A stretch of DNA of 64,000 nucleotides from a virus (Duplodnaviria > Caudoviricetes): the IMG/VR virus record IMGVR_UViG_3300033068_001704, positions 64,001 to 128,000 of that record. One strand, given 5' to 3'. The position numbers and the translations under genes are program-made. Positions 10,277-60,322 of the stretch are shown here, piece by piece. The notes below the pieces were generated by a model, which searched no databases, was not told the origin of the DNA, and saw nothing but the letters and a program-made list of their open reading frames with translations. The number at the start of each line of letters is the position of its first letter. The first letter of the stretch is position 1.

Positions 10277-10867
10277 ATGAACAACCAGCTCCGCTCCAAG
10301 CTCATCCGGCTCGCTCACTCCAAGCCGGAGCTTCGAGCCCACCTCATCCCCCTGCTCAAGCAGGCGGCGGGGCAGACGCCTCTGTACGGGCACACGAGCC
10401 CCGAGACGGCGTACGTCGTCGAGGACTACCCGTACGGGTTCAAGGCGCGGACCCAGGCTCGCTTCTGGCTGGAGCACAACCCCTCGAAGGGGTTCCGCTT
10501 CCTGTCTCAGACGATGGACCCGAAGCGTCCCGGGGTTTGGAACAAGCCCAAGGCGAGCACGTTCTCCCGCCTGGCCGGCGCGATGTTCCTCGACTCCAAG
10601 GGCCACGTCTCGTGGATGGGCGTCAACGAGTACACGGATGCCCCCGAGGTCCTGAGCTTCCTCAAGATGTTCCCCCGCGCTGACACCGGGTTCCTCCGGA
10701 AGTGGGCCCCCGCGAAGGTGAAGTTCTACATGAAGCTCCTCCAGGTGAACGAGGAGGGGTTCACGGGGTTCTCGATGAACGGGGAGCGGATCCCGGCCGA
10801 TTCCAAGGATATGGAGCGAAATCAGAAGTCGCTCGAAGCCTGGACCGAGGTTCAGAAGGCGCTGTGA
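10277..10867 (+). CDS. Hypothetical protein with N-terminal shared peptide tag (putative virion cargo)
   Basis: LRSKLIRLAHSKPELRAHLIPLLK followed by KQAA; VEDYPYGF motif. Confidence 0.75.
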   Translation: MNNQLRSKLIRLAHSKPELRAHLIPLLKQAAGQTPLYGHTSPETAYVVEDYPYGFKARTQARFWLEHNPSKGFRFLSQTMDPKRPGVWNKPKASTFSRLAGAMFLDSKGHVSWMGVNEYTDAPEVLSFLKMFPRADTGFLRKWAPAKVKFYMKLLQVNEEGFTGFSMNGERIPADSKDMERNQKSLEAWTEVQKAL

Positions 10868-10946
10868 TCTTTTTCCGGGTCTGAATCCGATCCGCGGCGT
10901 AAGATACCTGTCACCTCGGAGCTGCACTGGTTCCGGGGCGACATAC

Positions 10947-11329
10947 GGGGATGTAAAGGTATCGACAGGGGATACGATCTACTGTGTTGCGTGCAGGGGT
11001 TGGTCGGTGGGCCCCTACAACAAGCCGACCACACATAGCTGCGAACGATAACAGCTACGCCCAGGCCATCGCGGCCTGAGCCGTTGGGGTAGATGGTCCG
11101 ATTCATCTACTCTGACGTCATTCAAGTCGGTGTAACTCACGCTGGTGCGCTCAGCGGTGTGGGCCAAACAAAACTGAGAGCTGGTGGAGGGTACTCCGGT
11201 GCCCCTAACGGCAGCCCGCTTCAGGCATGAAGGGCCGTAAACCGCGCAAGCGGACTTCGAGATGGAGCTACGCACGTAGACGCACAGTAGAAGGTCTTCT
11301 GGACCCGGGTTCGATTCCCGGCATCTCCA
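10947..11329 (+). ncRNA. ssrA: tmRNA, tag peptide (A)ANDNSYAQAIAA*
   Basis: GGGGATG/CATCTCC-A acceptor with G3:U70; TCGAC after the D-like loop; 3' GGACCCGGGTTCGATTCCCGG T arm; tag ORF 11041..11079 preceded by TAGCT. Confidence 0.95.
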
Positions 11330-11334
11330 TGGAT

Positions 11335-11377
11335 GAGGCGGGGAGGGGCTGCAACCCTTCCCCGCCTTCTCTATTTC
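11335..11377 (+). terminator. Terminator after tmRNA
   Basis: GAGGCGGGGAGGG...CCCTTCCCCGCCTT stem with T-rich tail. Confidence 0.7.
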
Positions 11378-11418
11378 CGGGGTCTCGGTACGAGATCTAT
11401 CTCACCCGCAAGGGTACG

Positions 11419-11931
11419 ATGACCTCAAAGCAAGCCGACCTCGACCACGACTCTCTTCCCATGAAGAAGACCGACTTCATCTCGTGGGACAGTGATGTCC
11501 GCGATTCGGAGGGTCTCATCCGCGTGCCTCCGGCACAGGAGCTGGCGGCCGAGATGGCGGCGATGCTTCGTCGGAACCGATGGACCTCGAACTTCGGGGC
11601 GAAGGCACAGAACGGGGCCGTAGTCATCTTCGACAGCTCGGAGAGCTTCGACGTCGTTGCAGTCGTTGCGAGACGCGGGAAGCAGGTCATCTTCGACTCG
11701 TTCCCGCAGGAGCCTGAGGGGCGGGTCAACGAGGGGATTCGAAACGCCCTCGACCAGGCCATGAAGTCGTTCCGACCCTGGAGTCAGTCGAACTCCCGCC
11801 CGATCTTCGCTTCGTCCAAGGTCAGCCCCGCGACCAAGCTCCGTACCGAACTCGTTCGCCTCGCCCATCAGAAGCCCGAGCTTCGTGCACATCTCCTCCC
11901 TCTCCTGAAAGAGGACAAGTCTTCCCGATGA
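11419..11931 (+). CDS. Hypothetical protein with C-terminal shared peptide tag
   Basis: Start moved downstream of the tmRNA; MTSKQA N-terminus; LRTELVRLAHQKPELRAHLLPLLK at the C-terminus. Confidence 0.7.
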   Translation: MTSKQADLDHDSLPMKKTDFISWDSDVRDSEGLIRVPPAQELAAEMAAMLRRNRWTSNFGAKAQNGAVVIFDSSESFDVVAVVARRGKQVIFDSFPQEPEGRVNEGIRNALDQAMKSFRPWSQSNSRPIFASSKVSPATKLRTELVRLAHQKPELRAHLLPLLKEDKSSR

Positions 11932-12161
11932 AGCGCCAGACCCATCCTGTCGTACGACGCGCCCCCGATCCCTATGAGGGTCTCGTGGAGTACCTGGATG
12001 GGTGCTGCGGGATGGGGCCGCATTTGTGCGACTGCTGGGAAGAGTCTTGGGGGGACTCATGGGGATCCGAGCCTGGGGTGGACTACGAGCTGTACGATCG
12101 GATCCTCTCTTCACGGCATCCGTTGAAGACGCCCCTCCGGGAGATCTTCCGAGCTGCCTGA
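11928..12161 (+). CDS. Small hypothetical protein
   Basis: ATGA overlap. Confidence 0.4.
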   Translation: MKRQTHPVVRRAPDPYEGLVEYLDGCCGMGPHLCDCWEESWGDSWGSEPGVDYELYDRILSSRHPLKTPLREIFRAA

Positions 12162-12203
12162 TCCACCTCGGTAGAGTCCCCACCACCTCAGGGTGAGTGG
12201 AGG

Positions 12204-13325
12204 ATGTCAATGGACGAGTTGATCCCGGGGCAGTTCCGACAGTTCAAGGCAGCGACGAAGTTCCATCTCGGGAAGCTGTCGATCGATGTGCCCGAGGGGG
12301 AGACCGTCGAGTTCGATGGTCAGACCCTGCGGATGAAGGGCACGGAATACACGATCCCCGAGCTGCGCGCAGGCGTCAAGGTCGGATGGATCGTTCCCGT
12401 CGAGGTCATGCCGGCGGCGTACAAGGCGAAGCCCGCAGACGTCCGGGTGCGGTCCGCCCAGGACAAGAAGGGCGCGAAGACGAGCCTGGCGACGGTGCAG
12501 GACGACGAGCGTGATGTCGGTCCGGCCGTTCGGAAGAACGCCAAGGACACGGCGGAGAAGAAGGAGACCTTCTCGCGGGAGATCCGCGTTCAGGACGACG
12601 TCGAACGCGATGTCGGGTCGGCCGTGGGCCGCATCACAGGCGTGGAGAAGACCGCGGCGACCCCCGTCTCCTCGGGGGGTGTGGAATCCCAGAACCCCCG
12701 CACGATCGGGAAGATCGGTTCTTCCATGCGTGTGGTCTCCGACACGACCGAGGCGCAGGATGCGAAGCCGATCGGCCGCATCGCGACTCCCGCGGTCCAG
12801 AAGACCGTCATCTCTGATGCAGCCGCGGCTGCGCGCGCAGCGAAGAACCTCGACGACGGTCCGCCGCGTCGGGCCGCTGCTGCGGTCATCCCGGCCAAGG
12901 GCGCGCGTGATCTTCATGCCGCGGAGGCGGAGAAGGTCGAAGACATCATCGACGCCCTCGAACCCGAGGGTCGTGCGAAGATGATGGCGGAGCAGCGCAA
13001 GCAGAAGCTGGCGGGATCGAAGGCGTCGGCCCCGGTGGCCAAGGCAGTCGCGACCCCGGCTCCGGCAGCCAAGCCGAAGGTGGCGGCGAAGCCGCGTGCT
13101 CGGTCCGCGCCGACGACGGTCGAAGAGGTCATCGTTCGAGGTGACGAGATCGATCTCCCCGTGGGCATCAAGTGGGACCTCACGATCCACTGGCGCTCGC
13201 GCGCGAAGATCGCGTCCGAGAAGTACGGGTCGAACGCAGAGGTGCTCGCCGCCATCCGTGCGGTGGAGAGCCCGGCGGTCAACGCGCTCATCAACGAGCG
13301 CCTCGTGGCTCTCGCGAAGGCGTGA
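12204..13325 (+). CDS. Hypothetical Ala/Lys-rich protein
   Basis: GGAGG SD; strong codon bias; short internal repeats VQDD(V)ERDVG.AV. Confidence 0.8.
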   Translation: MSMDELIPGQFRQFKAATKFHLGKLSIDVPEGETVEFDGQTLRMKGTEYTIPELRAGVKVGWIVPVEVMPAAYKAKPADVRVRSAQDKKGAKTSLATVQDDERDVGPAVRKNAKDTAEKKETFSREIRVQDDVERDVGSAVGRITGVEKTAATPVSSGGVESQNPRTIGKIGSSMRVVSDTTEAQDAKPIGRIATPAVQKTVISDAAAAARAAKNLDDGPPRRAAAAVIPAKGARDLHAAEAEKVEDIIDALEPEGRAKMMAEQRKQKLAGSKASAPVAKAVATPAPAAKPKVAAKPRARSAPTTVEEVIVRGDEIDLPVGIKWDLTIHWRSRAKIASEKYGSNAEVLAAIRAVESPAVNALINERLVALAKA

Positions 13326-13386
13326 TTCGCCGCTCGGTTTCTCGCGGATATTGATCCCCGGTTGAGGCGCAAGCCCCCGTAGGGAC

Positions 13387-14121
13387 ATGAACGGTCGAGA
13401 CAAGAAGGCATCCAGCCAAGTCGCCTGGTCCCTCCTCACTGAGGGGGTGACCCAGGCTCGGGTCGATACCCATCGCCTCCGACTCATGGTCGATCGCGCT
13501 CTGGCGATCGTGGACCAGTCGGAGGCGAAGGATCACATCTACCAGGTGGCTGGGGACCTGATCGAGGCGGTTCCCTCACGTCTCTCTGACATCGAACGAT
13601 CGCTGGACCGAACGTCGTACGCCCTGGTTGTCATGGGGGACGACTTCCTCCGAGGCCGGATCCCGTTCGATGATCGGCACGAGGTAGATGAAGCCGTGAA
13701 GTCCGCCCCCTTCTCCACACAGCGCGCGAAGGAGTCCCGGCCGAACGCGGCACGTGTGGCATCCCGAGCCCTCGCCGTTCGCGTCGCCCTTCGGTACGCA
13801 GCCAACACCAGCGAGCATCACTTCTTCGACAACCCGGAGAAGCGTGAGGTCCTGGAGTTCGCGGACTCAGGCGCTCTCTCGAATCTCCCCTCGGTCGCCA
13901 TCAAGTCCGTGAAGGATTCAGACGGTCCGGACCGGACGGTGGCTGAGGCTCGTGCCGAGGCGAAGAGCGCTCCTCCGGACCCGGAGAAGATCGAGAAGAA
14001 GCCGGGAGGGAAGCAGTTCTCTACCCTCAACCGCTACGTCGTCGAGACGGAGCAGCCCCGGGCTGGCCGCGTACCTCAGGGTCGTAGCGAGCTTCCGAAG
14101 GCGAAGCCCCAGGCGAGGTAA
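13387..14121 (+). CDS. Putative virion protein with KKAS/RVAS motifs
   Basis: KKASS at the N-terminus; ARVASRALAVRVALRYAA internally. Confidence 0.7.
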   Translation: MNGRDKKASSQVAWSLLTEGVTQARVDTHRLRLMVDRALAIVDQSEAKDHIYQVAGDLIEAVPSRLSDIERSLDRTSYALVVMGDDFLRGRIPFDDRHEVDEAVKSAPFSTQRAKESRPNAARVASRALAVRVALRYAANTSEHHFFDNPEKREVLEFADSGALSNLPSVAIKSVKDSDGPDRTVAEARAEAKSAPPDPEKIEKKPGGKQFSTLNRYVVETEQPRAGRVPQGRSELPKAKPQAR

Positions 14122-14123
14122 TC

Positions 14124-14696
14124 GTGTCCAATCTTCTGAATCTCACGAACGACGACCTCGACGTCCATCGTCAGGGCGACAAGTTCAACGTCACCCCCGG
14201 ACCCGAACTTCGTGCCTCCGGATGGCGGGCCGGGCAGTGGGTCATGTACGCAACGACGCAGGTCCCGTCGGTTGCAGAGTTCACGGTCGAGAAGTCGAAC
14301 GGCATCTACGCCACGGGCTTCCTCCTCTTCGGGTCAGAGGACTACTCGAACCCGCGTCAGTCCACGTACCGGAACTACACTTCGTACCAGATGCTCGGGG
14401 GACCTGGGGCCACGGCCTCAGGTGCAGGTGTCTCCACGATCGTCGCGGGTGGTGGTCGGTTCCTCTTCCGCCTGTACGAGACGATCGCGCTCGATGGTGC
14501 GGGGGCTCGCACCGGCGGCCCGGCCACCTACAACGTCAACCTTCCGCTGAAGGTCAGCGAGAACGGGATCCTCTGTCAGGATTCCGATGCGGACCTCCTT
14601 CTGGCGACTGGTGGCACGGAGGTGCTCGTGGTTGGGGTCTGCTCGAAGGCACCGACCACCGAGGATCCCAGGCTCGGTCTCGACCTGAAATACTGA
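14124..14696 (+). CDS. Putative virion structural protein
   Basis: GAGG SD; beta-rich; lies in the structural block. Confidence 0.6.
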   Translation: MSNLLNLTNDDLDVHRQGDKFNVTPGPELRASGWRAGQWVMYATTQVPSVAEFTVEKSNGIYATGFLLFGSEDYSNPRQSTYRNYTSYQMLGGPGATASGAGVSTIVAGGGRFLFRLYETIALDGAGARTGGPATYNVNLPLKVSENGILCQDSDADLLLATGGTEVLVVGVCSKAPTTEDPRLGLDLKY

Positions 14697-14697
14697 G

Positions 14698-16788
14698 ATG
14701 GGCGATCCCGTCTACGTGCTCTGCGACAGCACCTTCACATCACGAACTGCGATCGTGATGAAGCGCGCTGATGCCTCTCCTCCGCTTGGAAGCGGGGGCG
14801 GGGCCTGCCGTGTGGTGGAGCGCATCCTCCGCGAACGTCTCCCCCCGTCTCAGACGGAAGAGATGGTTCAGATCGTGGAGAGCGACGGGGACCTCTCGAA
14901 CGCTCAGGCGTCGAAGGTCTACGACTCGATCACCGAGTTCGGTCCCTCTCCCTTCGACCGCTTCGTTCTCACCCCTCACGCCCAGTACCGGATGGATCTC
15001 CGGAACATCCGGGTGAACGACCTCCGAGACGCCCTTCAGAGGTTCGTCAAGGAGATCGGGGAATGGAAGAAGCGTCGAGATCCGCGATACGAGCGCCTAC
15101 TCTCGAACACGCAGAAGGTGGAGTGGCTCGATCAGAAGTCGGGTCTGTTCTTCGTGTTCGGCCTCGGTCGGAATGGCGGGGCTCCCGCGATCATCACAAC
15201 CTACTGGAAGAACCGGGTCAACCCGCCGGCCCCGTCTGGGGGTTGCACCAAGAGGGTTGCGAACGACGCGGACCTGTTCGGGATCAGTACCTTCAGAGGC
15301 GAGAAGCCCTCGAAGGGGATTCTGAACGACACGAACCAGCCCGACAAGCTGTCGCCCGGCGAGTCTCCTCGATCGGATCGTGACCGCGCGCTCCCGCAGC
15401 GCCCGAGCACGAAGGAGAACCTCGAAGAGCACCGACCAGGGCCCCCGGTGTTCAACACCCCGGGACCTTCCTCGGGTCCGGGTGCAGAGGGGAAGCCGAT
15501 GAAGGTCCGTACCCCGGGGAAGCCGGGAGAGGAGTACGGCCACCCGTTCAAGAACGACATCGCCCCCCGTCGAACCACGGCATCGGATGACGATGAAGGG
15601 GACGAGGAGCGCGAGGTCGAGGCAGGCCTCGTCCCGACGTACTCCCAGCGTCAGCGCAAGCAGCGGGGCAAGGCGAAGCGGTACTACCAGAAGTATTACC
15701 GGCGTCACCGCAACAAGATCAAGATGCGGGCGAAGCGTCGCTACAAGCGCATCCGCCGCAACCCGACGTACAAGCGACGGCAGAAGATCCGCCGCGACCC
15801 GCGGTACATGAGCCGGTTCCGCCGGATCCCGAACGGTGGTCGGAGTGACCTGAGCGACCGGACGGCATCCATGTCGATCGGCTTCTTCCACATGACGTAC
15901 GGGTGGGGCGACGTCGTGGACTTCGCGGACGATGGTGTCGTCCTTCACCTCGACGGAGAGAGTGAAGAGTGCGCAGTCGTCCCGCTCCCGACCTTCATGC
16001 TCGGGGTCGTGTTCGATGGCGACGAGGACACCGAGGCGTTCTTCAACGCGATCGAGGAAGCGTACGGAGTCCCCGATCCTCGTTGGGTCGCAGCGGCGTA
16101 TCGCGAGGTCGAGGCAGGGACGTTCTACCGAGAGACGTTCACCCCCGGCCACAACATGGATGCGGGCCCTGGTGCGCAGGACCTTGGGGCCCCGGGACCC
16201 AACAACGTCAACGACTCTCTCCGGCTTCCCGATGACGAGCATGAGGATCGTCCGACCTCGCACAAGCTCGACATCAGCCCGACCACGAACAACCCCGGGT
16301 CTGCGAAGGTGATCCCTTCGGGCCATGGATTCGTGAACAAGGAGGCTTCAGGGCCTTCGGCGATCCGAGTCGCCAAGCGTCTCGCGGAGCTGCTCGACGA
16401 GACCTCTGGAGAGGTCAAGAAGCGGTCTAAGGGGCTCAAGCCGAAGGGGCGGAGGTTCAACCCGAAGACGTCGATGTTCACGTTCTCGGTGCCAGGGCAG
16501 ACCTCGGCCCAGACCTACGTGGTGCAGGCGAAGATTCTTCGGAAGGGGAACGCGACGAAGGTCTCGAAGATGGACCTTCTCGTCTCCTGCTCGTGCCCGT
16601 TCTGGCAGTGGCAGGGGCCTGAGCACTGGGCGAAGGTCGGGAATTACCTCTACGGGAAGGCCCGGGGGACGGCATCTCAGCCGGTCGTCAAGGACCCGAA
16701 GAACCATCACCGTGTCTGCAAGCATGTCGCGGCCTGTCTCGAATCCATTCGGAACTGGGAACTCGCCGCCGCTACCCCCACGAAGTAG
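14698..16788 (+). CDS. Multidomain protein: DUF4258-like RNase fold, Arg/Lys/Tyr-rich segment, C-terminal SWIM zinc finger
   Basis: LTPHAQYRMDLRNI...IITTYW; protamine-like KRYYQKYYRRHRNKIKMRAKRRYKR; VSCSCPFW...VCKHV. Confidence 0.7.
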   Translation: MGDPVYVLCDSTFTSRTAIVMKRADASPPLGSGGGACRVVERILRERLPPSQTEEMVQIVESDGDLSNAQASKVYDSITEFGPSPFDRFVLTPHAQYRMDLRNIRVNDLRDALQRFVKEIGEWKKRRDPRYERLLSNTQKVEWLDQKSGLFFVFGLGRNGGAPAIITTYWKNRVNPPAPSGGCTKRVANDADLFGISTFRGEKPSKGILNDTNQPDKLSPGESPRSDRDRALPQRPSTKENLEEHRPGPPVFNTPGPSSGPGAEGKPMKVRTPGKPGEEYGHPFKNDIAPRRTTASDDDEGDEEREVEAGLVPTYSQRQRKQRGKAKRYYQKYYRRHRNKIKMRAKRRYKRIRRNPTYKRRQKIRRDPRYMSRFRRIPNGGRSDLSDRTASMSIGFFHMTYGWGDVVDFADDGVVLHLDGESEECAVVPLPTFMLGVVFDGDEDTEAFFNAIEEAYGVPDPRWVAAAYREVEAGTFYRETFTPGHNMDAGPGAQDLGAPGPNNVNDSLRLPDDEHEDRPTSHKLDISPTTNNPGSAKVIPSGHGFVNKEASGPSAIRVAKRLAELLDETSGEVKKRSKGLKPKGRRFNPKTSMFTFSVPGQTSAQTYVVQAKILRKGNATKVSKMDLLVSCSCPFWQWQGPEHWAKVGNYLYGKARGTASQPVVKDPKNHHRVCKHVAACLESIRNWELAAATPTK

Positions 16789-16821
16789 GCCTGAGGGTCG
16801 GTAGGGTTCCCCCAAGAACCG

Positions 16822-17205
16822 ATGCCGACCTACGACTACGAGTGCGAAGCTTGTGAAACGGCGTTCGAGAGGTACCTGCCCATGGCGGAGTACAACGCCC
16901 CGCAAACCTGCGAGAAGTGCGGGGCCACTGCGAAGAAGGTGATCTCGACGGTCTCCTTCGTTCTTGCGGGGGACGCCTGGCCTGGGAAGGCCAACAAGAT
17001 CAAGAACCAGATGGCCGCGAAGAACAAGCGGCTCGACAAGAAGCAGGCGGAGCAGAAGCGGGATCGACCCGGCATGACGCTCGCCCCGAACGTCAACGGG
17101 GAACGCGTGGACTCCTGGTCCGATGCGAAGAAGCTCGCCGAGTCGAAGGGCTTGAACACGGCTTCCTACGATCCGAAGGTCCGCCAAGAGGCGAAGAAGG
17201 ACTAG
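16822..17205 (+). CDS. FmdB-family zinc ribbon protein
   Basis: MPTYDYECEAC...CEKCG. Confidence 0.85.
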   Translation: MPTYDYECEACETAFERYLPMAEYNAPQTCEKCGATAKKVISTVSFVLAGDAWPGKANKIKNQMAAKNKRLDKKQAEQKRDRPGMTLAPNVNGERVDSWSDAKKLAESKGLNTASYDPKVRQEAKKD

Positions 17206-17249
17206 CGGGATCGGTGAACACACGATAACGCTAGAGAGGGGGAGAGCCT

Positions 17250-18008
17250 ATGACCCGTCAGCGTGACATCCCCTCCATTCAGTACCGCACCCCGAATCAG
17301 ATCAACATGACCCTCCCGGTTCGACCCGGGATCGACAGGTTCGAGATTCGAGGGGCAGCCAGACTCGTCGATGCGTATGGGACCGTCGCCGGCCTCACTG
17401 GAGGTGGGGCCCTCCCGATGTTCCAGATCACGAACGGTGGGGACTTCCGATCGAAGGGGATCCGCATGCGTCGGCTCCCTGCCATCGAGGAGTCGAGCCG
17501 CGGGCTGACCCGCATGGTGTTCGATCCGGACGACTTCGCGACCCCCGTCCAGGTGTCTGGGACGACCTATCTTCCGGGAGACGACCAGGTCTTGTTCCTG
17601 CGTGTCGCAGCGCACGACCAGGCCTCGAACACCTTCCTCCCGGAAGGCCCGATCATGATCGTGCCCTCGTACGACTTCTTCACGACGAAGGAGCCGACGC
17701 TCACGGTGACGGGGCAGGCTCCGAACCTCGCTGTGGGGGCGTTCCCCCCGAACATCCCGGACGCAATGCCTGCGGAGTCCTTGAACTTCCTCCTGCCGGC
17801 GTACTCAACGACCGTCTCGATCAAGAACCTCGAAGCGGCAGCCGGGCAGCCTCTGTTCGTCTCGTTCCATCCTGGGACGCCCCCGACCGTGCTCATGCCC
17901 GGAGATGACATCAGTCTGACGGGTGCAGGCATTCCCGAATTCTTCATCGGGAGCCCGAATGGGAACGCCTGGTTCTCCATTCGTATGGCTGTAGTCAACA
18001 GCGCGTGA
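17250..18008 (+). CDS. Putative virion protein
   Basis: SD, codon bias, structural context. Confidence 0.65.
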   Translation: MTRQRDIPSIQYRTPNQINMTLPVRPGIDRFEIRGAARLVDAYGTVAGLTGGGALPMFQITNGGDFRSKGIRMRRLPAIEESSRGLTRMVFDPDDFATPVQVSGTTYLPGDDQVLFLRVAAHDQASNTFLPEGPIMIVPSYDFFTTKEPTLTVTGQAPNLAVGAFPPNIPDAMPAESLNFLLPAYSTTVSIKNLEAAAGQPLFVSFHPGTPPTVLMPGDDISLTGAGIPEFFIGSPNGNAWFSIRMAVVNSA

Positions 18009-18118
18009 ACATGAAGGCGTTAGGGCTTCTATGCCCGAACGCTAACGGAAGGGAACATCCCGTTCCACAGAACTCAGCTCCCGTCAGTGCGGCGGGCCCC
18101 TCTTAGGGAGAAAACGAC

Positions 18119-18805
18119 ATGCCGTTCATCTGCCTCCGTCGCTCGGACATCCCCAACTCGACCCTTCAGGTCACCGACTTCTGGCCGAACAAGAGCCAGG
18201 CGAACCCCTCGATCGACCCGCAGCCTCAGGGCCCGCGGTACGTCAGCGCGCCCTCGACCTCGACGGTCACGCTCGCCAGCACCGGTGGCACTCAGCGCTA
18301 CTTCGCAGCCGCTCAGAGCGGTCTCGCGGCGTACCTGATCGCCAACGTGCAGGTCGGCGCAGCCGGCCCCGCGCTCACTCCGACGGAGGCCAACACGGCC
18401 GCCGCCGCGCTGATCGCGGCGATGCGCGCCGGGACTGCATCGGGCGCCACTCAGATCAACGCGATCCTCACCGCTGCGGCGACGGGCGCGAACCTGACGG
18501 CGAACACCTCGACCGGAACCGTCGCGGACGTGCTTCGCATCCTCGCGGGTGCGGTCTACACCGTGCCGGCAGCGACGATCGTGCAGGACGGCTCGGGTGA
18601 CTTCGTCGCCCAGGCAGGTCCGGCGGCGTGGAACGCGGCGAACTTCGACTACACGAAGTACAAGGACATCCTCGTCGCCGACGGATCGTTCTACATCTCG
18701 CTCGCAGAGGGCCAGCTCAACGGATTCACGTCCTCGACGTTCTCGTACGTCGGGACGACTGGCGCGGCTCTGGTCGTCTACGACGACGCTGGCGCCGTTC
18801 TCTGA
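18119..18805 (+). CDS. Putative virion structural protein (paralogue 1)
   Basis: Ala/Thr-rich; collinear with the next gene (MPFICL.RSDIPN...). Confidence 0.75.
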   Translation: MPFICLRRSDIPNSTLQVTDFWPNKSQANPSIDPQPQGPRYVSAPSTSTVTLASTGGTQRYFAAAQSGLAAYLIANVQVGAAGPALTPTEANTAAAALIAAMRAGTASGATQINAILTAAATGANLTANTSTGTVADVLRILAGAVYTVPAATIVQDGSGDFVAQAGPAAWNAANFDYTKYKDILVADGSFYISLAEGQLNGFTSSTFSYVGTTGAALVVYDDAGAVL

Positions 18806-18901
18806 ACCCTGACCGCTTCTAGGTGAAGGCGTCAAAACCCCTGATAACCCGGGGGGTTTGGCGCCTTCTTCGTATTTCCCATGTTCCTGTAGGAGAGTGA
18901 G

Positions 18902-35868: not shown

Positions 35869-37041
35869 ATGACCGACCGCGACCTACGATCCAAGCTGAT
35901 CCGCCTCGCACACAAGAAGCCCGAGTTCCGTGGGGTTCTCCTCCCCATCCTTGATTCTCGGGTGGCCTCGAAGGACCTGAAGTCTCTCGTGGTGAAGATG
36001 GTGGCGAGTGCTGGGAAGAAGCTGAAGGCGTTCGCGGCTACAGTGCCGGTCGAGGCGTACCGAGAGGTCGGTGTCGTCAAGGCCACGGTGGAGTCCCCCC
36101 CTCCCCGAGGGGGCTACGGACCCTTCGAGAAGGGTGAGATCACGATCGGCAAGTATCTGATCAGCGTGACCGGAGACCACTCCAACGGCACTGTTACCAT
36201 TGGGGTTCGGGCTGGGGGCAGCTACGTCATGGAGAGCCTGTACTCCAAGGGTCCGGCAGCCGATGCCCCTGCCCGCCTCAAGAAAGTCCTGAGCACCATC
36301 GAGGGCCTCGTGTCTGCGAATGTGGGGAGGGTGATGGAGAAGGTCCCTCAGGCGACCTCGAACCCCATCGATTCCGTCGAAGACAAGCTGAAGTCGATGC
36401 GCCTTGGACCGGGTGGCCGGGTCCGCTCGGTCGAGCGGGACTCCCCCACTGAGTGGACCGTGGAGCCTACGAACCGGTTGCGCCTCGACCACTACAGTGG
36501 GGACGATGAGGACGGGTGGAACGAAGACGGGTGGCGAGAGGACTACGCAGACCCCGTCGAGATCGCTGCGCAAGGATGGCTGGAACAGGAATTCGGAGCG
36601 GGCCTGTTCGAGGTGACCGAAGTGGGGGAAAAGGGCCACGTCCACATCTCCCTCACCCCCAAGGGCAAGCAGACGCTCAAGGGGGCATCCCCGAAGGCAG
36701 CAGGGTTCGACGCGTCGGACTTCGACTGGCTGGGGGACCCTGAGGGGGAAGGGCCTCCCCCTAACGCCCAAGAGCGGGTCTATGCGTCACTTCGGCGCGG
36801 GGACCTCGTTCGGATCGACGGCAAGGGTCCCACGTTCCGGGTGACGCAATCCCAGGATGACCACGTCAAGATCCTCGCGAAGCACGACACGACCGGTCGC
36901 AACTACTACATCTCGAAGATCGTCAGCCGAGATCCGCTCCAGGTCGCAATCTACCAGGGTCAGGGGGGTGGGATGGGCCACAAGCCGAACCCTGTCGCCC
37001 GGCCTGGTGTCCCGAAGCTCGTCGGTCACGTGGACGAGTAG
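35869..37041 (+). CDS. Multidomain protein with N-terminal shared peptide tag
   Basis: LRSKLIRLAHKKPEFRGVLLPILD followed by RVAS. Confidence 0.75.
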   Translation: MTDRDLRSKLIRLAHKKPEFRGVLLPILDSRVASKDLKSLVVKMVASAGKKLKAFAATVPVEAYREVGVVKATVESPPPRGGYGPFEKGEITIGKYLISVTGDHSNGTVTIGVRAGGSYVMESLYSKGPAADAPARLKKVLSTIEGLVSANVGRVMEKVPQATSNPIDSVEDKLKSMRLGPGGRVRSVERDSPTEWTVEPTNRLRLDHYSGDDEDGWNEDGWREDYADPVEIAAQGWLEQEFGAGLFEVTEVGEKGHVHISLTPKGKQTLKGASPKAAGFDASDFDWLGDPEGEGPPPNAQERVYASLRRGDLVRIDGKGPTFRVTQSQDDHVKILAKHDTTGRNYYISKIVSRDPLQVAIYQGQGGGMGHKPNPVARPGVPKLVGHVDE

Positions 37042-50530: not shown

Positions 50531-50537
50531 GGTCTAG

Positions 50538-51673: not shown

Positions 51674-51680
51674 CCTCGAC

Positions 51681-52715: not shown

Positions 52716-52765
52716 TGGGTGGGAGGTCTAGGCCTCCTGATCCACCTATCGATTCTCAGGTTGAG

Positions 52766-53887
52766 ATGTACTTCTTTCTGACGAGCGCGGTAAAAAACCG
52801 CTTCATCCTGGAGCTTCGCAAGTTCTGGTCGCTGAATCCTCGGTACCAGGACTTGATTGACAACATCCAGGGGAAGTACGGCTTCTCAGAGAGACCTCAG
52901 TACGGGATCATCGTCAAGGCGGGGTCGGCGTCCCGGGTCCAGTTCTCGGCCGACAATTTCCTGGGGACTGGCTTCAGCTACGCAGCTTTGGCCAAGATCC
53001 CGGGATCCCCTGGTTTGTCGGTCGAATGGGTCCGAGAGGACTCTATCGCCATCCGGAACAACGGTGGGTTCCCGTCCCCTGCGGGCGTGTACTACTGCGA
53101 GATGACGGCGGAAGACGAATTCCACGTTGACCCGCTGCTCGACGTCCACGACGAGAGGCTCACGCTCACCACCAGCACCGAGGGCACGCTCCAGCAGGTT
53201 CCTGTTGGTGGGAGCCTCCGACTGTTCGAGATCCCGAGCGGCCGTCTCCTGAGGCCTGAGACCGACTACACCGTGGGGTCTGACGGGGTGACGATCCACC
53301 TCGCCGCAGACGTGCTGCCTGGAACGTCGATTTCGGCGGACTATCGGTACGCCGGGGAGACAACGGGACCTTGGAAGGTCCTCCCGCAGTCTGGACTCAA
53401 CAAGCCCATCCCTGGTGTGGTGATGGTGTTCGGTCGTAGGTACCGCCTGGGGGACAAATGGGCGGTCATCATCAACCCGACGCGTGAGCCGGCCTACCTC
53501 CTCTACGGAGGAAAGTGGGAGCTTGGTCTCGATCTCGACATCATTTCGAGAGACCCTGAGGCACAGATGGAGATTGCCGATCAGACGGCGATGTACCTGT
53601 GGGCGAGCCTCCGTTCGAGTCTCGTGGACGAGGGGATCGACATCCAGGACGTGTCGATGACCGGTGAGTCGGAAGAGATCTACGACGAGACCGGAGACGA
53701 TTACTACTACAACGCCTCCCTCTCCATGACGGTCCAGACCGACTGGTTCCTCGCGACCCCGATTCTTCCGCGTCTCCTGGCGTACCAGGAGACGATCAAG
53801 AACCTGAGCGACGCGTCGTCCTTGGCCCCCTTCCAGGACCCTTACTTCAGCGCCGGCAAACTCACCTCTTTCGAGATGGTGAAGTGA
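52766..53887 (+). CDS. Probable tail terminator/sheath-associated protein
   Basis: Position before the sheath; LDLDIISRD..AQMEIAD...SLSMTVQTDW pattern. Confidence 0.5.
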   Translation: MYFFLTSAVKNRFILELRKFWSLNPRYQDLIDNIQGKYGFSERPQYGIIVKAGSASRVQFSADNFLGTGFSYAALAKIPGSPGLSVEWVREDSIAIRNNGGFPSPAGVYYCEMTAEDEFHVDPLLDVHDERLTLTTSTEGTLQQVPVGGSLRLFEIPSGRLLRPETDYTVGSDGVTIHLAADVLPGTSISADYRYAGETTGPWKVLPQSGLNKPIPGVVMVFGRRYRLGDKWAVIINPTREPAYLLYGGKWELGLDLDIISRDPEAQMEIADQTAMYLWASLRSSLVDEGIDIQDVSMTGESEEIYDETGDDYYYNASLSMTVQTDWFLATPILPRLLAYQETIKNLSDASSLAPFQDPYFSAGKLTSFEMVK

Positions 53888-53966
53888 CCGAGCCCTACGA
53901 AGCCGAATAGCGAACAGGGTTGATCGCTAGACCCTCTATATGACCGGGCTAGGGGCAGAGGCTCCT

Positions 53967-54437
53967 ATTCCGGTCTTTCGCTACCAGTGCTCGTCATGCG
54001 GGCTGAACTTCTCGGCTCGGGTCGCTTCGGCCACGAGTTCGGTGAAGTGCGGCTGTGGTGAAACGGTGGAGAGAGATCTCCCCCGTTCATTCTCCGTGAG
54101 CACCAAGGTGGCTGGAGACGGGATCTCGGCTCCCGCCACGGGGCTGTCGGGGCACGACTACGAGATTGACCGGATTGTTGGATCTGATGCCCAGACGAAG
54201 TGGGATCAGATCGCCGCCCGCCAGAAGGACAAGGTTCGGATGATCGAAGAGAGCGGAGCCACTGGCTTCGATCTCTCTCGGAATCCGGATGGTTCCTACC
54301 GAGTGATGAAGCCTGAGGAACGGGCTGCATCCGAACGGTCCCGCAACTTCCACTTCAAGATGCAAGACCGTCTTGAACAGGTAGTTCCGGCAGAGGTCCT
54401 CTACGGGCCCCGCAAAACTCCGCAGAAACAGGCCTAA
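53967..54437 (+). CDS. FmdB-like zinc ribbon protein (possible ATT start)
   Basis: (I)PVFRYQCSSC...CGC aligns with MPTYDYEC of 16822. Confidence 0.65.
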   Translation: MPVFRYQCSSCGLNFSARVASATSSVKCGCGETVERDLPRSFSVSTKVAGDGISAPATGLSGHDYEIDRIVGSDAQTKWDQIAARQKDKVRMIEESGATGFDLSRNPDGSYRVMKPEERAASERSRNFHFKMQDRLEQVVPAEVLYGPRKTPQKQA

Positions 54438-54579
54438 CAACCTGTTTCTCTCCCGGCTCGCCTAGGGCGAACCGTGGTCAAGACCGACAGACATACGCAC
54501 GCATCTCCCGCGCTTTTCGTTTCCTCTCCGATAGCTCGGAGAGGTTTGGAATTACCCCGTTCTCAGGAGCGCGCGAAAC

Positions 54580-57500
54580 ATGCCGAGTCTTCTCCGTGGA
54601 GGGTACGCCCCGCCGGGCGTCTACACCCAGACCTCTTTCGGCGTCCCGCCGTCCCCGACGCCGGTACCGCCCCGTATTCCCGTGTTCGTTGGCACGGGTG
54701 TCGAGATCCTCTCTCGATCGAACCTCCCGCTCGTTCGAGGTTCTTCCTCGACCATCGACCAGCAGGTCGTGGATGAAGACGAGGCGGGTCGCGCCGTCGT
54801 GAGTGTGTCCGGCAGTGGGCTGGTGACGCTCGGCGAGTTCGAGGGCACCCTCACTCGCTTCCAGGTCCGCAACTTCCCGATCGTCTCGGGGGCGGGCACT
54901 GGCACGGTCGCAACCGACGCCAGCGCGGTCTCGGTTCGCATCAACGGCCTCCCGGTCGTCGTGCTCGGTCTCGATGCCACCAAGGGCATCGTCGAGATCG
55001 CTCAGGCACCGTCGGCGAGCGACGTCGTGCGATGCACGTACTTCTTCGACCGCACCGACACCATCGCCACCGACGACCTGTCTGATCAGGTCACGGCAGA
55101 GGCAGCGGTCCTCAACGGCCTCGCGGGTCAGAGCTTCTCGTTCACCGCGGGTGTGAACGACGTGTTCCGCATCGCGGTGGACGGCCTCGCAGAGGTCGCG
55201 ATCGTTCTCCCCTCGTCCTCCCCTACGGTCTCGGCTGCGATCGTCGCGGCGACGCTGAGTGGAGCGGCGGGCATCGGGTCGCTCGTCGCCTCGACGTACG
55301 TGAACAACCTCGGGCTGGTGTGCCTTCGCCTGACTGCCGACAAGTCGATCCGCATCGGCACCGGCACGGCGAACACGACCCTCGGGTTCGTGCCGAACGC
55401 GCAGACCTCGCGCAACCGCGTGTTCTACACGTTCAACGGTCCGATCGTGGACGGATCGGGGGGTGGTGTCACGACCACCAACCCGTCGGATGTCGTCGTC
55501 CTCGTGGACAACGTCCAGGTCATCCCGACCTCGGTCAACGGGTCGAACCGGTCGGTGACGCTCCCCTACGCCCCGGCGATGGGCTCGAAGGTCACGGTCC
55601 GCTACTCCCACAACTCGTGGCAGGACACGTTCGACTACCTCGCGAACATCGGCGTGACGCGCATCACGCGCACCGCGCTCACTCCCGAGGGCTCGACGGC
55701 CGGCACGTTCATCCAGGGCGTCTCGTACGTCCTGAAGGACGACGCGATCGTCTGGGGAACGTCGGCGCTCGTCTCGGCCGGCACCCACACCGAGGGCGGG
55801 GAGATCTTCGGGACTTCCCAGATCTCGGCGATGCTGGTGGACAACCAGGCCTTCCTCGCGCCGTGCTCCAGCACGACTGACACCAGTGGCTCGGTCTCGA
55901 TCGAGAGCCGGACGGTCTTCCAGCTCCCGTTCCAGCCGACGACCGGCAACGGCCGTGGCAACCCGCTCGGGTCGGACTACCTGACGATCTCGAACGGTCG
56001 GATGGACCTTCCGACCACCCGCCCGGACCTGATCACGGCGTACTGGGGCTTCGGCGTCCAGGATGCACTCACCCGCGGCCCGGTGACGGTCCTCAAGGTG
56101 GACAGCGACACGTCGCGGATCACGCTCGCATCGAGCGTTCCGGATGGCGCCGAGGTCTTCGCGACCTTCTACTACAACACGCTCGTCGATCAGGCGAACG
56201 TCGGGTCCAGCTCGGGCTACGAGATCTCCTCGCTGCTCGCTGGCCCCGGTGGCATGGGCACCTTCCAGATCGCGGACGGCGAGGGCAACTCGCTCTACGG
56301 GGTCTCGCTCACCGGCAAGGGCTCGGACCTCGCGACGGTGGACGTGGTCTTCCCGAGCGGTTCGGAGTTCTTCCCCGACGCGCGCATCGAGGGCGGTGAG
56401 GCGGTCGAGGAGACCGTCACGGTCGAGTTCGCAACGTCGGATGCGACCCCCGCGCGGTTCGTGAACCTCGGGCCGGCTCCGTACTACACGATCGACAACA
56501 CGTCGGACCGCCTCCGGGTGACGTTCGATGCGTCGGCTTCGCAGACCGGCGTCGCAGGTGGTGTCGATCTCTCGTCCCCGACGGGTGCGACGCGCGCAGG
56601 TGCCTTCGCTCACCTTCTCGGTGAAGAGATCGCGTACGAGGCGGACTCGGGCCAGACGACGTTCGACCTCACCTCGGGTGTGGACGACACCGTCAACTTC
56701 GTGGTGGACGGCGTGCCGCTCTCGGCTTCGACCGGCACCGTGTCCAGCGCAACGGCCGCGACCTTCGTCGCAGCGATCAACGCAGAGGCGATGGAAGCGG
56801 GCAACGAGCCCCGCTACGACGCGGCGGGTGTCTTCACCGGCATCACCATCGCGGTGAACGAGTACGACCAGCTCACGATGCACTACACCGGTTCGACCGG
56901 GGGTGCCTCGGGCAACCAGGCGATCACGATCGCTCCGGGAACCTACGCCTCGGTCGGTTCGCTCGTCACGCAGATCAACACGCAGCTCTCGACGATCAAC
57001 GGCCCGGTCGGTGGTCTCGGCGGTGAAGTGACCTGCTCGGCGCTCTCGTCGGGTCGGCTGCGCTTCTCGCTCATGACGGAGCGCGCAAGCAGCGTCCTGA
57101 CCTTCGTGTCGAACCCGCTCAACGCCACGACGGCCACGATCGGTGGGAAGGTCTACACCTTCCAGACCGTGCTGACCGACGTGGACGGCAACGTCCTGAT
57201 CGGGGCGGCGGCAACCAACACGCTCGACAACCTGATCGCGGCGATCACGCTCGGCGCCGGTGCTGGCACCACCTACGCGACATCGACGACCCTTCACCCC
57301 ACCGTCACGGCGGCAGCGGGTGCGGGCGACACGATGCGGGCAACCGCGAAGTCCGCCGGGACGGCAGGCAACGCCATCACCACCACGACGACCGTGGCGG
57401 GTGCAACCTGGACGGGCGCGACGCTCGCCGGGGCGGACGAGGCCGGCTACCTGGAGTTCATCACGAACGCCAGCGCGGCCCGTGACTTCGCCATCCTCGC

Positions 57501-59886
57501 AGGCATCGACACCGACTCGGCCGCGGGCGGAAACCAGTCGAAGCTCTACCAGGGCCCGATCGCTCGCCGCTTCACGGTGGCAACGACCGGTGGGCGCCTC
57601 GCCTACGACCGCATCCTCCTCCGCAACCGCCTCTTCCCGGGTGGAAGCTCGGTCGCACACGAGAACGTGCTCTCGCAGGCTGGGATCACCCTCCAGGGTG
57701 GTACCGGCGCCGCGAAGGCAGGTCTCCTCGGTGGTGTGACCGGAGAGGCTGTGTTCGGGGCGAACGTGAAGGCTCCCTCGATCTTCGCGCAGACCGGATG
57801 GTCGAGCGGACAGGTGGCGGCGCTGACCTTCGGGGATGCACGCGACAGCCAGCCGCTGGTCACGTTCTACGACGGGTCCGACCCGTCGAACCCGGCGAAC
57901 GATCTCCTGACCTTCACGGCAGGCGGGTCCCTCGTCACAACGGTCTTCACGGCTTCGAGCAGCGGGACGGACACCGCGCTCGGCCCGGTCACCGAGGCTG
58001 ACTCGGTCCTCGGGCAGATCAACGCGGCGATCGTCGCGGCGGGTCTCTCGGCGGTCGTGAGTGTGCGCCAGGAGGGTGCGGGCTTCCGCATCGTCGGTGG
58101 TGGCGTCGGCCCGACCGGCAACCTGACCATCGGGGCGGGTTCGGCGAACGACACCCTCGGTCTGTCCGAGGATGACACGGCGGCACCGGTGCCGGTCTCG
58201 GCGAAGCAGATGGCGAGCGCCCTCATGGGTCACGCTCAGGCGCCTGGTTCGTTCTCGACGGCGATGCTCGACTACGACACGCCCGACGCGAGCTACTTCG
58301 CGGGGCGAGCGCTCGCATGGGTCGCGACTGATTCGACTGGCAACGAGTTCCTCTACCTCCAGAGCCAGACGCTCGGGACCTCGTCCAGCATCGACTTCCA
58401 GGATGCGACCTCGAACAACGCCTTCGTGACCGGGACCCAGCTCCTGATCACGGCGGATGACGGGGCATCGGGAGAGGCCACCACGGACGGCTTCTTCGTC
58501 GTCAGCTCGAACCCGAGCGCGGGCTCCGGCTCGGCGAACACCTCGGTGTTCAACGCCGGTGTGGGTCAGGACGGCGTCGTCGGCCAGACCTACATGGACG
58601 ACGTCTCGGGCCTGACGTTCACCATCCTGCCCCGTGATGGCGGGATCCCGTACCCGACGGGTGCGAACGCGACCCTGTCGTTCCGCGTCTCGAAGACCTT
58701 CCTGACCGATGGCAACATCCCGACCCTCGCGGTCCCGGGCATCGAGCTGACGGTGACGAACACCTCGGGCGTCGCGACGGGTGACACCGCCTTCGTCGAG
58801 ACCTTCAAGAAGTCCGGCGCGGAGCCGAGCATCGGGCAGGTCTACTACGTCTCGTACGACTACGAGAAGCAGAACTTCTCCCCGAAGCTCTTCTCGAAGC
58901 TGTCGGACGTCGTCGCCGAGTACGGGCCGGTGAGCACGGACAACCCGCTCTCGCTCGCGGCCTACATCGCCTTCCTGAACGGGTCGAGCGTCATCGGTAC
59001 CTACCAGGTGCGGAAGGCGACCAACTCGTCCCAGGCGAGCGCGCAGGCGTACCTCGACGCGCTGGTCGAGCTGGAGGGCGCCTCGCTCCCCGGCAACATC
59101 AACCCGACGGTGCTCGCCCTGCTGACCCCGGCGACTGCGGACCTCGCGAAGCAGACCGCGATCCACTGCGACATCCAGTCGTCCATCCGGTACCGCGCAG
59201 AGCGGACGGCGGTCTTCGGATACGCATCGGGCACGCAGCCGGCGCAGGCGGGTCTCATCTCGCAGGCGGCAGGTTCGACGCGCGTCCGGTTCGTCTACCC
59301 GGACATCGCGACCCTCACCCTCACCGACGTCCTCGGGAACTCCCGTGAGTCCCTCGTGGACGGTCGGTACATCGCGGCGGCGGTCGCTGCGAACACGACG
59401 GCTCCGAGCATCGACTCGGCAACCCCCTGGACGGGTCGCCTCCTGTCGGGCTTCACGTCCCTCGGACGTCGGCTCGATGCGGTGGCAGCCAACCAGGTCG
59501 CGGCTCGCGGCGTGACCGTGGTCGAGGATCGCCTGCCCTTCCTTCGGATCCGGCACGGCCTCACCTCGGACATGACCAACGTCCTGACCAAGACGCCGAC
59601 GGTCATCCAGATCGCCGACGACATGCAGCGTCGGGCGCGTGCGGTTCTCGACCCCTTCATCGGTGTCAAGTTCCTCCCGCAGATCCTCGGTCAGATCGAG
59701 GGTCAGCTCAGCGAGATGTTCAAGCGCGCTGTGCAGGAGCAGATCATCACCTCCTTCACGGGCATCAGCGTCGCTGTCGATCCCGAGGATCCGACCGCGG
59801 TTCTGGTCGAGGCGTACTACGTCCCGGTCTTCCCGCTGCTCTACATCCAGCTCTCGTTCCGAGTCTCGGCCCAGTCGAGCTTCTGA
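54580..59886 (+). CDS. Tail sheath protein, very large (1768 aa)
   Basis: N-terminal YAPPGVYT; C-terminal sheath domain (RVRFVYPD, RHGLT, VEAYYVPVFPLLYI); AGGAG SD. Confidence 0.9.
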   Translation: MPSLLRGGYAPPGVYTQTSFGVPPSPTPVPPRIPVFVGTGVEILSRSNLPLVRGSSSTIDQQVVDEDEAGRAVVSVSGSGLVTLGEFEGTLTRFQVRNFPIVSGAGTGTVATDASAVSVRINGLPVVVLGLDATKGIVEIAQAPSASDVVRCTYFFDRTDTIATDDLSDQVTAEAAVLNGLAGQSFSFTAGVNDVFRIAVDGLAEVAIVLPSSSPTVSAAIVAATLSGAAGIGSLVASTYVNNLGLVCLRLTADKSIRIGTGTANTTLGFVPNAQTSRNRVFYTFNGPIVDGSGGGVTTTNPSDVVVLVDNVQVIPTSVNGSNRSVTLPYAPAMGSKVTVRYSHNSWQDTFDYLANIGVTRITRTALTPEGSTAGTFIQGVSYVLKDDAIVWGTSALVSAGTHTEGGEIFGTSQISAMLVDNQAFLAPCSSTTDTSGSVSIESRTVFQLPFQPTTGNGRGNPLGSDYLTISNGRMDLPTTRPDLITAYWGFGVQDALTRGPVTVLKVDSDTSRITLASSVPDGAEVFATFYYNTLVDQANVGSSSGYEISSLLAGPGGMGTFQIADGEGNSLYGVSLTGKGSDLATVDVVFPSGSEFFPDARIEGGEAVEETVTVEFATSDATPARFVNLGPAPYYTIDNTSDRLRVTFDASASQTGVAGGVDLSSPTGATRAGAFAHLLGEEIAYEADSGQTTFDLTSGVDDTVNFVVDGVPLSASTGTVSSATAATFVAAINAEAMEAGNEPRYDAAGVFTGITIAVNEYDQLTMHYTGSTGGASGNQAITIAPGTYASVGSLVTQINTQLSTINGPVGGLGGEVTCSALSSGRLRFSLMTERASSVLTFVSNPLNATTATIGGKVYTFQTVLTDVDGNVLIGAAATNTLDNLIAAITLGAGAGTTYATSTTLHPTVTAAAGAGDTMRATAKSAGTAGNAITTTTTVAGATWTGATLAGADEAGYLEFITNASAARDFAILAGIDTDSAAGGNQSKLYQGPIARRFTVATTGGRLAYDRILLRNRLFPGGSSVAHENVLSQAGITLQGGTGAAKAGLLGGVTGEAVFGANVKAPSIFAQTGWSSGQVAALTFGDARDSQPLVTFYDGSDPSNPANDLLTFTAGGSLVTTVFTASSSGTDTALGPVTEADSVLGQINAAIVAAGLSAVVSVRQEGAGFRIVGGGVGPTGNLTIGAGSANDTLGLSEDDTAAPVPVSAKQMASALMGHAQAPGSFSTAMLDYDTPDASYFAGRALAWVATDSTGNEFLYLQSQTLGTSSSIDFQDATSNNAFVTGTQLLITADDGASGEATTDGFFVVSSNPSAGSGSANTSVFNAGVGQDGVVGQTYMDDVSGLTFTILPRDGGIPYPTGANATLSFRVSKTFLTDGNIPTLAVPGIELTVTNTSGVATGDTAFVETFKKSGAEPSIGQVYYVSYDYEKQNFSPKLFSKLSDVVAEYGPVSTDNPLSLAAYIAFLNGSSVIGTYQVRKATNSSQASAQAYLDALVELEGASLPGNINPTVLALLTPATADLAKQTAIHCDIQSSIRYRAERTAVFGYASGTQPAQAGLISQAAGSTRVRFVYPDIATLTLTDVLGNSRESLVDGRYIAAAVAANTTAPSIDSATPWTGRLLSGFTSLGRRLDAVAANQVAARGVTVVEDRLPFLRIRHGLTSDMTNVLTKTPTVIQIADDMQRRARAVLDPFIGVKFLPQILGQIEGQLSEMFKRAVQEQIITSFTGISVAVDPEDPTAVLVEAYYVPVFPLLYIQLSFRVSAQSSF

Positions 59887-59926
59887 TCTGAGCTGATAGC
59901 TCACCCGCGAGCGCGGGAGGAGTTCG

Positions 59927-59961
59927 GAGCCGCTCACGGAAACGTGGGCGGCTCTTTTCTT
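59927..59961 (+). terminator. Intrinsic terminator after sheath
   Basis: GAGCCGCTCACG-GAAA-CGTGGGCGGCTC followed by TTTTCTT. Confidence 0.8.
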
Positions 59962-59983
59962 CTATATGGATGTGATTCGTGAG

Positions 59984-60322
59984 ATGGCGTCACTCAGAGC
60001 CCAAACAATCCGACTCGCACACGCGAAGCCGGAACTCCGTCCACATCTTCTCCCGCTCCTCAAGAGCGCGAAGATGCCTTGGGGTGGAGGCTCTGACGTC
60101 AACTGGGCGGAGATCGCAATGGTGGAACGCCACCGCCTCACGAGACGAGTCCGAGACCTGAAGAAGGCCGTCAGCACACTGCAAGAAGTGACGACGATCA
60201 TTCGGTCAGCGCCGGACGCTTCAGGGGATGAACTCCTGTTTGCGATGTCGCTCTTGAAGGCGGTCAACGAATCCATCCGAGCGATTCACCGCGACATCAA
60301 GGATGTACTTGGAATTCCCTGA
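59984..60322 (+). CDS. Small protein with N-terminal shared peptide tag
   Basis: LRAQTIRLAHAKPELRPHLLPLLK followed by SAK; alternative start 59966. Confidence 0.7.
   Translation: MASLRAQTIRLAHAKPELRPHLLPLLKSAKMPWGGGSDVNWAEIAMVERHRLTRRVRDLKKAVSTLQEVTTIIRSAPDASGDELLFAMSLLKAVNESIRAIHRDIKDVLGIP

Follow-up and report, generated by a model that had tools for sequence, protein, structure and literature searches.

A portable helical hairpin shared by unrelated proteins of a huge phage is a candidate capsid-loading tag

Four proteins encoded in a 64,000-nucleotide stretch of phage DNA (the window, bases 64001-128000 of a 222,154-bp IMG/VR phage contig of 63% G+C) carry nearly the same short peptide, which raises the question of what this peptide does for its carriers. 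The source of the contig is a huge phage, since at 222,154 bp it is still only about 50% complete by the CheckV estimate. In the first-pass annotation of the window, the peptide was regarded as a portable, position-independent tag that recruits proteins into the prohead and is then removed by the prohead protease. The copies of the tag, their cargo, their flanks and their genomic surroundings are considered here in turn, together with the alternatives on which each of them bears.

Copies, fold and distribution of the tag

The tagged genes and the RNA genes beside two of them are located as follows (window coordinates unless genome coordinates are indicated).

10149..10224, + strand: tRNA gene, directly 5' of tagged gene E
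10277..10867, + strand: tagged gene E, 196 aa; N-terminal tag at 10289-10360, then K-Q-A-A at 10358-10369
10947..11329, + strand: tmRNA gene, directly 5' of tagged gene F
11419..11931, + strand: tagged gene F, about 170 aa, directly 3' of the tmRNA gene; C-terminal tag at 11839-11910
35869..37041, + strand: tagged gene G, 390 aa; N-terminal tag at 35884-35955, then R-V-A-S at 35959-35970
59966..60322, + strand: tagged gene H, 118 aa; N-terminal tag at 59993-60064, then K-S-A
genome 3206 (N-terminal), 4237 (C-terminal), 11685 (N-terminal) and 18991 (C-terminal), + strand: four further tag copies, found by profile search

The four peptides originally reported in the window, at 10289, 11839, 35884 and 59993, are all in frame on the + strand. 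The N-terminal copies start 4, 5 and 9 residues past the start codon, and the C-terminal copy stops 9 residues short of the stop codon; the start of gene F is better set at 11419 because the longer open reading frame overlaps the tmRNA gene. A profile built from these four copies was searched against all six frames of the whole contig and returns exactly eight copies with scores of 36-55 bits, the next match scoring 8 bits. All eight are terminal and on the + strand: five are N-terminal, beginning 2-9 residues past the start codon, and three are C-terminal, ending 0-9 residues before the stop. The proteins are otherwise unrelated, as had been claimed, given that tag-masked BLASTP among the eight detects no similarity at E<1e-4. 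The eight tag coding segments share 67% nucleotide identity, and conserved residues differ in codon at 57%, which therefore indicates selection on the peptide and not a DNA repeat.

The tag core comprises 24 residues, L-R-x-x-x-I-R-L-A-H-x-x-P-E-L-R-x-x-L-L-P-L-L-K, and the consensus of 451 non-identical copies is L-R-[SA]-x-[LVT]-I-R-L-A-[HY]-x-x-P-E-L-R-x-x-L-L-P-L-[LI]-K, with R7, R16, A9 and P13 practically invariant. The tag is basic, with a net charge of +3 to +5. In the AlphaFold2 model of the 196-residue gene E protein (10277-10864; 120 homologues used; mean pLDDT 94), helices 3-15 and 17-30 form an amphipathic hairpin that precedes an alpha/beta domain, which agrees with the two-helix structure first suggested for the tag. 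Comparison of the tag with Pfam, NCBIfam, PHROGs and PDB sequences yields no significant match; the PDB sequence search with the tag profile returns nothing at E<=10, and the ESM Atlas search returns generic helical-hairpin neighbours only. Identity with a known DNA-binding or dimerisation domain, which would have spoken against the original proposal, is likewise not seen in Pfam, NCBIfam or PDB sequences, and a literature search found no description of the tag.

Among individual tagged proteins of this genome, gene G has no match in Pfam, PHROG or NCBIfam, and a PHROG scan of six of the eight tagged proteins reveals no significant family. Gene H shows a weak codon bias (GC3 0.65), yet orthologues exist in two other phages (L042 and L069), in which the tag is 67-79% identical and the cargo 30-38% identical. 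A C-terminally tagged protein of 438 residues (L005 17752-19068) contains an H-E-x-x-H motif (H-V-M-A-H-E-M-G-H-H), and its likeness to zinc metallopeptidases is only faint.

Beyond this contig, a search of 1.84 billion proteins in metagenomic protein clusters with the tag profile gives 3,663 representative matches (E<=0.001), almost all on huge-phage contigs, where the tag is N-terminal, C-terminal, internal or repeated. In IMG/VR, a pattern scan gives 68 loci, for the most part on contigs 50-485 kb long and often with several in one genome; related genomes contain 2-15 copies apiece. In the phage collection, the sole match to the tag is an unannotated 485-kb metagenomic record, and no cultured phage there bears it. 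A degenerate DNA pattern scan of prokaryotic genomes gives one true tag among the 120 matches listed, which are mostly chance matches, and blastn of the region against deposited phages finds no match. The tag is a very widespread phage-specific interaction module even if the capsid is not its address.

Portability, cargo and placement of the tagged genes

The proposal that the tag is portable and independent of position is well supported by sequence comparison. Two homologous cargo proteins carry it at residues 5-28 (L007) and at residues 248-271 (L023), respectively; the cargo of this pair is 26% identical (E 3e-23) and the tag 88% identical. In all 11 orthologous pairs compared, the tag is more conserved than the cargo. 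The 105 tagged proteins on phage contigs fall into 84 cargo clusters with a median length of 182 residues, and the tag is single and N-terminal in 91 of them, C-terminal in 7, present at both ends in 3 and internal in 4.

The exchange of leaders is best seen in the gene E cargo, a family of more than 1000 homologues of about 185 residues with the core P-L-Y-G-H-T...D-Y-P-Y-G-F. Among the best 120 of these homologues, 6 carry this tag, 80 an AQLDREI-type leader (M-T-K-T-P-A-Q-L-D-R-E-I-A-E-A-L), 27 other leaders and 7 none, and leaders of all kinds meet the cargo at the same P-L-Y-G-H boundary. The AQLDREI-type leader also starts another open reading frame 2 kb away in the 502-kb phage that carries it. 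Structural comparison of the cargo E model (Foldseek, VIA-align) gives no informative fold, only generic hairpin matches confined to residues 136-196. The cargo has no tblastn match among deposited phages and is absent from five related genomes.

Recognisable cargo domains are few and include ART-PolyVal (three proteins), DUF2958 (two), pentapeptide repeats, WGR, RelA/SpoT, GNAT and a ParB-like nuclease; no tagged protein matched a replication, transcription or tail family. Polyvalent proteins are predicted to be packaged and injected, and ARTs, GNATs and ParB-like domains are discussed among their domains (PMC5512222). The ART-PolyVal, GNAT or ParB-like domains of some tagged proteins resemble that repertoire (PMC5512222), as does an enzyme-bearing protein of 1394 residues encoded between the portal and protease genes of this genome. 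Most tagged proteins differ from polyvalent proteins in being small and single-domain, without a recognisable domain, and in the four tagged proteins of the window such domains are absent altogether, against the at least two effector domains of a polyvalent protein.

The highest-scoring database proteins contain two to six tags in one protein, some of them internal. In these multi-tag proteins, the low-complexity linkers between the tags are charged, strongly acidic and contain further short motifs, and the double-tag and multi-tag disordered proteins of another clade adjoin metabolic genes rather than head genes. The tagged genes themselves are dispersed over the genome, rarely lie in the head module and are not enriched near head genes, and the same is true of complete relatives. 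Such features would be expected if the tag served docking or self-association in general, with no relation to the capsid, and bound a phage hub or itself so as to gather proteins in an intracellular assembly such as a virus factory or condensate, where the disordered proteins with several tags would act as cross-linkers; the amphipathic character of the hairpin would fit as well. This explanation is nevertheless unlikely. It accounts neither for the K-x-A-[SA] motif that the cargo side of the tag shares with a scaffold-like protein (see below) nor for the overlap of the cargo with the polyvalent-protein repertoire, and 91 of the 105 tagged proteins on phage contigs have just one tag, at the N-terminus.

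Flanking motifs, the head module and upstream signals

The head module lies at genome 52-66 kb and, by PHROG assignment, is arranged in the order large terminase, portal, 1394-residue protein (with HAD and topoisomerase IB domains), the two small genes h209 and h207, head maturation protease (phrog_18299, E 8.6e-12), 432-residue protein, 226-residue protein and major capsid protein. Relatives keep the same gene order. The terminase, portal, protease and capsid protein were identified with PHROGs, unlike Pfam, where direct searches of the genome with families of head proteases and the T4 capsid protein found no match. The AlphaFold2 model of the N-terminal domain of the protease is unusable (pLDDT 32). 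Three genes of the module are located as follows.

L006 8412-9038, genome 60411-61040: h209, a conserved head-module gene
window 1..453, + strand: 3' end of the gene for the acidic scaffold-like protein (432 aa; genome 63155-64453), located between the genes for the head protease and the capsid protein
window 1418..2293, + strand: major capsid protein gene (PHROG phrog_2522, E 9.5e-49), whose product is 87-92% identical in relatives

Two further observations concern head genes. A LAGLIDADG homing endonuclease with a helix-turn-helix domain is encoded at window 2413-3357, directly 3' of the major capsid protein gene. In the relatives L097-L106, L075 and L101, the portal gene (in several) and the protease gene (in two) match as two pieces 0.25-1.6 kb apart, which suggests introns, inteins or homing-endonuclease insertions in head genes.

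The N-terminal copies of the window are followed by [KR]xA sequences, as had been noticed (KQAA, RVAS and KSA). Across the tagged proteins, K-x-A-[SAG] occurs within 3 residues upstream of 31% of the tags that are not N-terminal and just downstream of 29% of those that are not C-terminal, about 30-fold above its frequency at random sites of the same proteins (about 1%). The motif therefore faces the cargo at terminal tags and occurs on either side of internal ones. A K-x-A flank is missing from about 70% of the tags, and the exact K-x-A-[SA] form flanks only three of the eight tags of this genome. The serine immediately before the tag could, at least in part, be a helix N-cap.

The same motif is a hallmark of the 432-residue scaffold-like protein, which has a net charge of -58, complementary to that of the tag, and contains 11 K-x-A-[SA] motifs. 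Its density of 2.55 per 100 aa is the highest of any gene and 24-fold above the proteome-wide value of 0.107; orthologues of the protein have 0.4-1.3 per 100 aa. Additionally, the first 30 residues of the capsid protein contain K-T-A-S and K-L-A-A, and a K-x-A-[SA] motif precedes the conserved C-terminal peptide of h209. The scaffold in which the motif is densest is this protein, encoded at the left edge of the window, and not the product of the gene at 12204. The latter gene (window 12204-13325) encodes a 373-residue protein with two V-Q-D-D-x-E-R-D-V-G-x-A-V repeats, an Ala/Lys-rich region and three K-x-A-[SA] motifs, and is probably the scaffold that was meant. From its enrichment at tag flanks and in the scaffold-like protein, we infer that the K-x-A-[SAG] flank may be a site of the head maturation protease, at which the tag would be removed as first proposed; the support for such removal is indirect.

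The short, fixed spacing between the motif and either side of internal tags, and the occurrence of such tags between domains of large proteins (P0002, for example, has a GNAT domain at residues 33-93 and then a tag at 117-142), would also suit a tag that is mainly a processing cassette, an exosite on which the head protease, or a different protease of the phage, would dock to find where to cut, and not a packaging address. A role of this kind is quite unlikely. The scaffold-like protein has many such sites and no tag, so the protease would not need one; most tags are single and terminal on small proteins, in which there is nothing to separate; and the flank is missing from about 70% of tags.

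Besides the scaffold-like protein, h209 was considered as a partner of the tag. It consists of a helical N-domain, a module F-D-P-x-x-I-G...M-x-G-E-F-T-Q-x-E, an acidic tail and a conserved C-terminal K-K-A-S-x-G-F-x-L, and a homologue is found in 13 of the 13 large tag-bearing contigs examined, two of the matches being only partial. Two relatives without h209, a complete 316-kb genome and a 196-kb contig, have no tag; because these two are close kin, the co-occurrence reflects no more than one or two independent events. Many multi-tag proteins contain the middle module of h209, which is the only part of h209 that they share. BLAST alignments had hinted that h209 itself carries degenerate tags, an idea that profile-profile comparison does not support (probability 0.1%) and that was dropped. 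Double-tag proteins are not the positional equivalents of h209 in other clades either, and no head genes are nearby.

Upstream of the tagged genes, the promoter-like hexamer YTCTAT is found at the following sites.

10241..10246, + strand: YTCTAT, 36 nt before gene E
11369: YTCTAT, before gene F
59960: YTCTAT, before gene H

The hexamer thus precedes three of the four tagged genes of the window by 6-50 nt, in accordance with the first observation. Genome-wide it lies upstream of four of the eight tagged genes (tagged gene D among them) and of the portal gene, which lends weak support to a shared timing of their expression. A stricter promoter-like pattern, TTCGTT...TATGG, was of no use, as its matches were limited to the portal gene and two tagged genes. 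The absence of the GCGTAA motif before all four tagged genes of the window, also reported earlier, holds. Elsewhere, in most of about 15 genes, GCGTAA is located 11-18 nt before the start codon (in the window at 5824, 29891, 30924, 34278 and 38781, for example) and includes the TAA with which the gene before it ends; this suggests a signal for stop-restart coupling rather than a promoter.

Four of the eight tagged genes adjoin tRNA or tmRNA genes. Two of these (L005 11676-11930 and 17752-19068) are inside a 36-gene tRNA array, a third follows an odd tRNA and the fourth the tmRNA (window 10149-11931), and the succession of a tmRNA and a tagged gene is also present in L007, L023 and L031. In a related phage, a pair of neighbouring tRNAs (L013 1237-1396), both with a CTA anticodon of the amber suppressor type, is found 1.6 kb upstream of a tagged gene.

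This adjacency, the net charge of the tag and its invariant arginines at positions 2, 7 and 16 could be taken to mean that the tag is a basic nucleic-acid-binding hairpin that tethers proteins to phage or host DNA or RNA, so that any packaging would occur by piggy-backing on the DNA. Such a function is improbable, since searches of Pfam, NCBIfam and the PDB match the tag to no DNA- or RNA-binding family, multi-tag proteins have strongly acidic linkers between their tags, an interface between proteins is suggested by the invariant Leu, Ile and Pro positions, and the proximity to tRNA genes is not general, none being nearby in 48 of 56 related loci. Finally, the suggestion that the shared peptide is an artefact (a chance resemblance, a repeat in the DNA or what is left of a single paralogous family after divergence), for which the shortness of the motif alone speaks, is scarcely credible and was rejected on account of the gap between the eight copies and the next match in bit score, the different codons at conserved residues, the placement at either terminus and the thousands of instances on unrelated cargo.

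Capsid loading and comparison with known systems

Loading of the tagged proteins into the capsid followed by proteolytic removal of the tag is the best explanation of these findings, and its probability is judged to be about one half. In such a pathway, the portable hairpin would dock its protein late in infection onto a component of the assembling prohead and so enclose the cargo inside the head; the most likely component is the scaffold core, which is very acidic, with h209 or the inside of the capsid as the other candidates. The head maturation protease would then cut at K-x-A|[S/A] sites on the cargo side of the tag, or at both sides of internal tags, and the freed mature cargo would leave with the DNA and be injected.

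The evidence for capsid loading includes the terminal copies and their modularity, the stronger constraint on the tag than on the cargo, the hairpin, the scaffold-type K-x-A flanks and the complementary charges. The polyvalent-type cargo domains, the co-occurrence with h209, the upstream YTCTAT and the precedents of T4 and P1 point in the same direction. Capsid loading is at odds with the scattering of the tagged genes, the multi-tag proteins in non-head contexts and the roughly 70% of tags that lack a flank. It is further weakened by the multiple copies per protein, which are unlike the T4 sequence described below, by the possible N-cap role of the serine, by the small number of independent losses of h209 and by profile comparison, which gives no homology between the tag and h209.

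The closest precedent is the capsid targeting sequence (CTS) of T4. The CTS of IPI-III and Alt has 10 residues, is N-terminal only and directs its proteins into the scaffold core (PMC9026906, PMC3012670); the prohead protease removes it, and in Alt both ends carry propeptides (PMC9026906). As in T4, a single phage here puts one short peptide, in eight copies, on otherwise unrelated, fast-evolving accessory proteins. Cleavage in T4 takes place at a consensus site adjoining the peptide, and the K-x-A motifs that flank about 30% of the tags are candidates for such a site; T4 Alt is trimmed at both ends, and the tag is found at either end. The strictly N-terminal, single-copy arrangement of the T4 sequence is not preserved, since C-terminal, internal and repeated copies occur. 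The tag also differs from the CTS in being a structured hairpin of 24 residues and far more widespread, and its putative cut motif, K-x-A|S/A, is unlike that of T4. By analogy, the tag may represent the T4-type targeting logic in a structured, position-independent and repeatable form common to thousands of proteins, a proposal that is evenly balanced between acceptance and doubt.

Other phages offer partial parallels. In P1, a reporter enters the capsid when it bears the 30 N-terminal residues of DarB (PMC9024508); a stretch of about this length suffices there, which parallels the role proposed for the tag, and the cargo in P1 is an anti-restriction enzyme. The P1 Dar proteins have no common consensus, in contrast to the one conserved sequence found here over thousands of proteins. 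SPN3US and phiKZ-like jumbo phages have head and ejection proteins with N-terminal propeptides of 20-24 residues that the prohead protease removes, and these resemble the tag in their shortness and in the presence of several cleavage motifs in scaffold-like propeptides (PMC10052503). The propeptides are not a shared portable sequence, and Glu is the last residue of their cut motif.

The C-terminus of the P22 scaffolding protein is a small basic coat-binding helix-turn-helix that docks electrostatically inside the procapsid and can carry fused cargo. The tag is likewise a small, basic helical hairpin, as judged from its AlphaFold2 model and charge; the P22 hairpin is confined to one scaffold protein, whereas the tag is spread over many genes and has no sequence match to a PDB chain. 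The encapsulation peptides of bacterial microcompartments and the cargo-loading peptides of encapsulins are short, terminal sequences at either end that load diverse cargo into a shell. They resemble the tag in being short terminal peptides on diverse cargo and differ in shell and in sequence.

A more far-reaching proposal, which is possible but tentative, is that the tag and its flank constitute an exchangeable address-plus-cut cassette in a large huge-phage clade, placed at either end or between domains, with multi-tag cross-linkers and lineage dialects such as the AQLDREI-type leader on the same families of cargo. Through it any protein could be brought into the prohead, the cassette then being excised. 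If true, such a cassette would amount to a general and reprogrammable code by which phage capsids deliver proteins.

Should the capsid be its address, the tag would single out a large set of otherwise invisible proteins injected by huge phages together with their DNA, comprising thousands of families that are mostly unannotated and likely rich in anti-defence and host-takeover functions, and such candidates could be found in metagenomes by profile search. Capsid targeting would then grow from a T4 curiosity into a structured, position-independent and repeatable module with a defined protease motif, one that could be used to load proteins into phage capsids.
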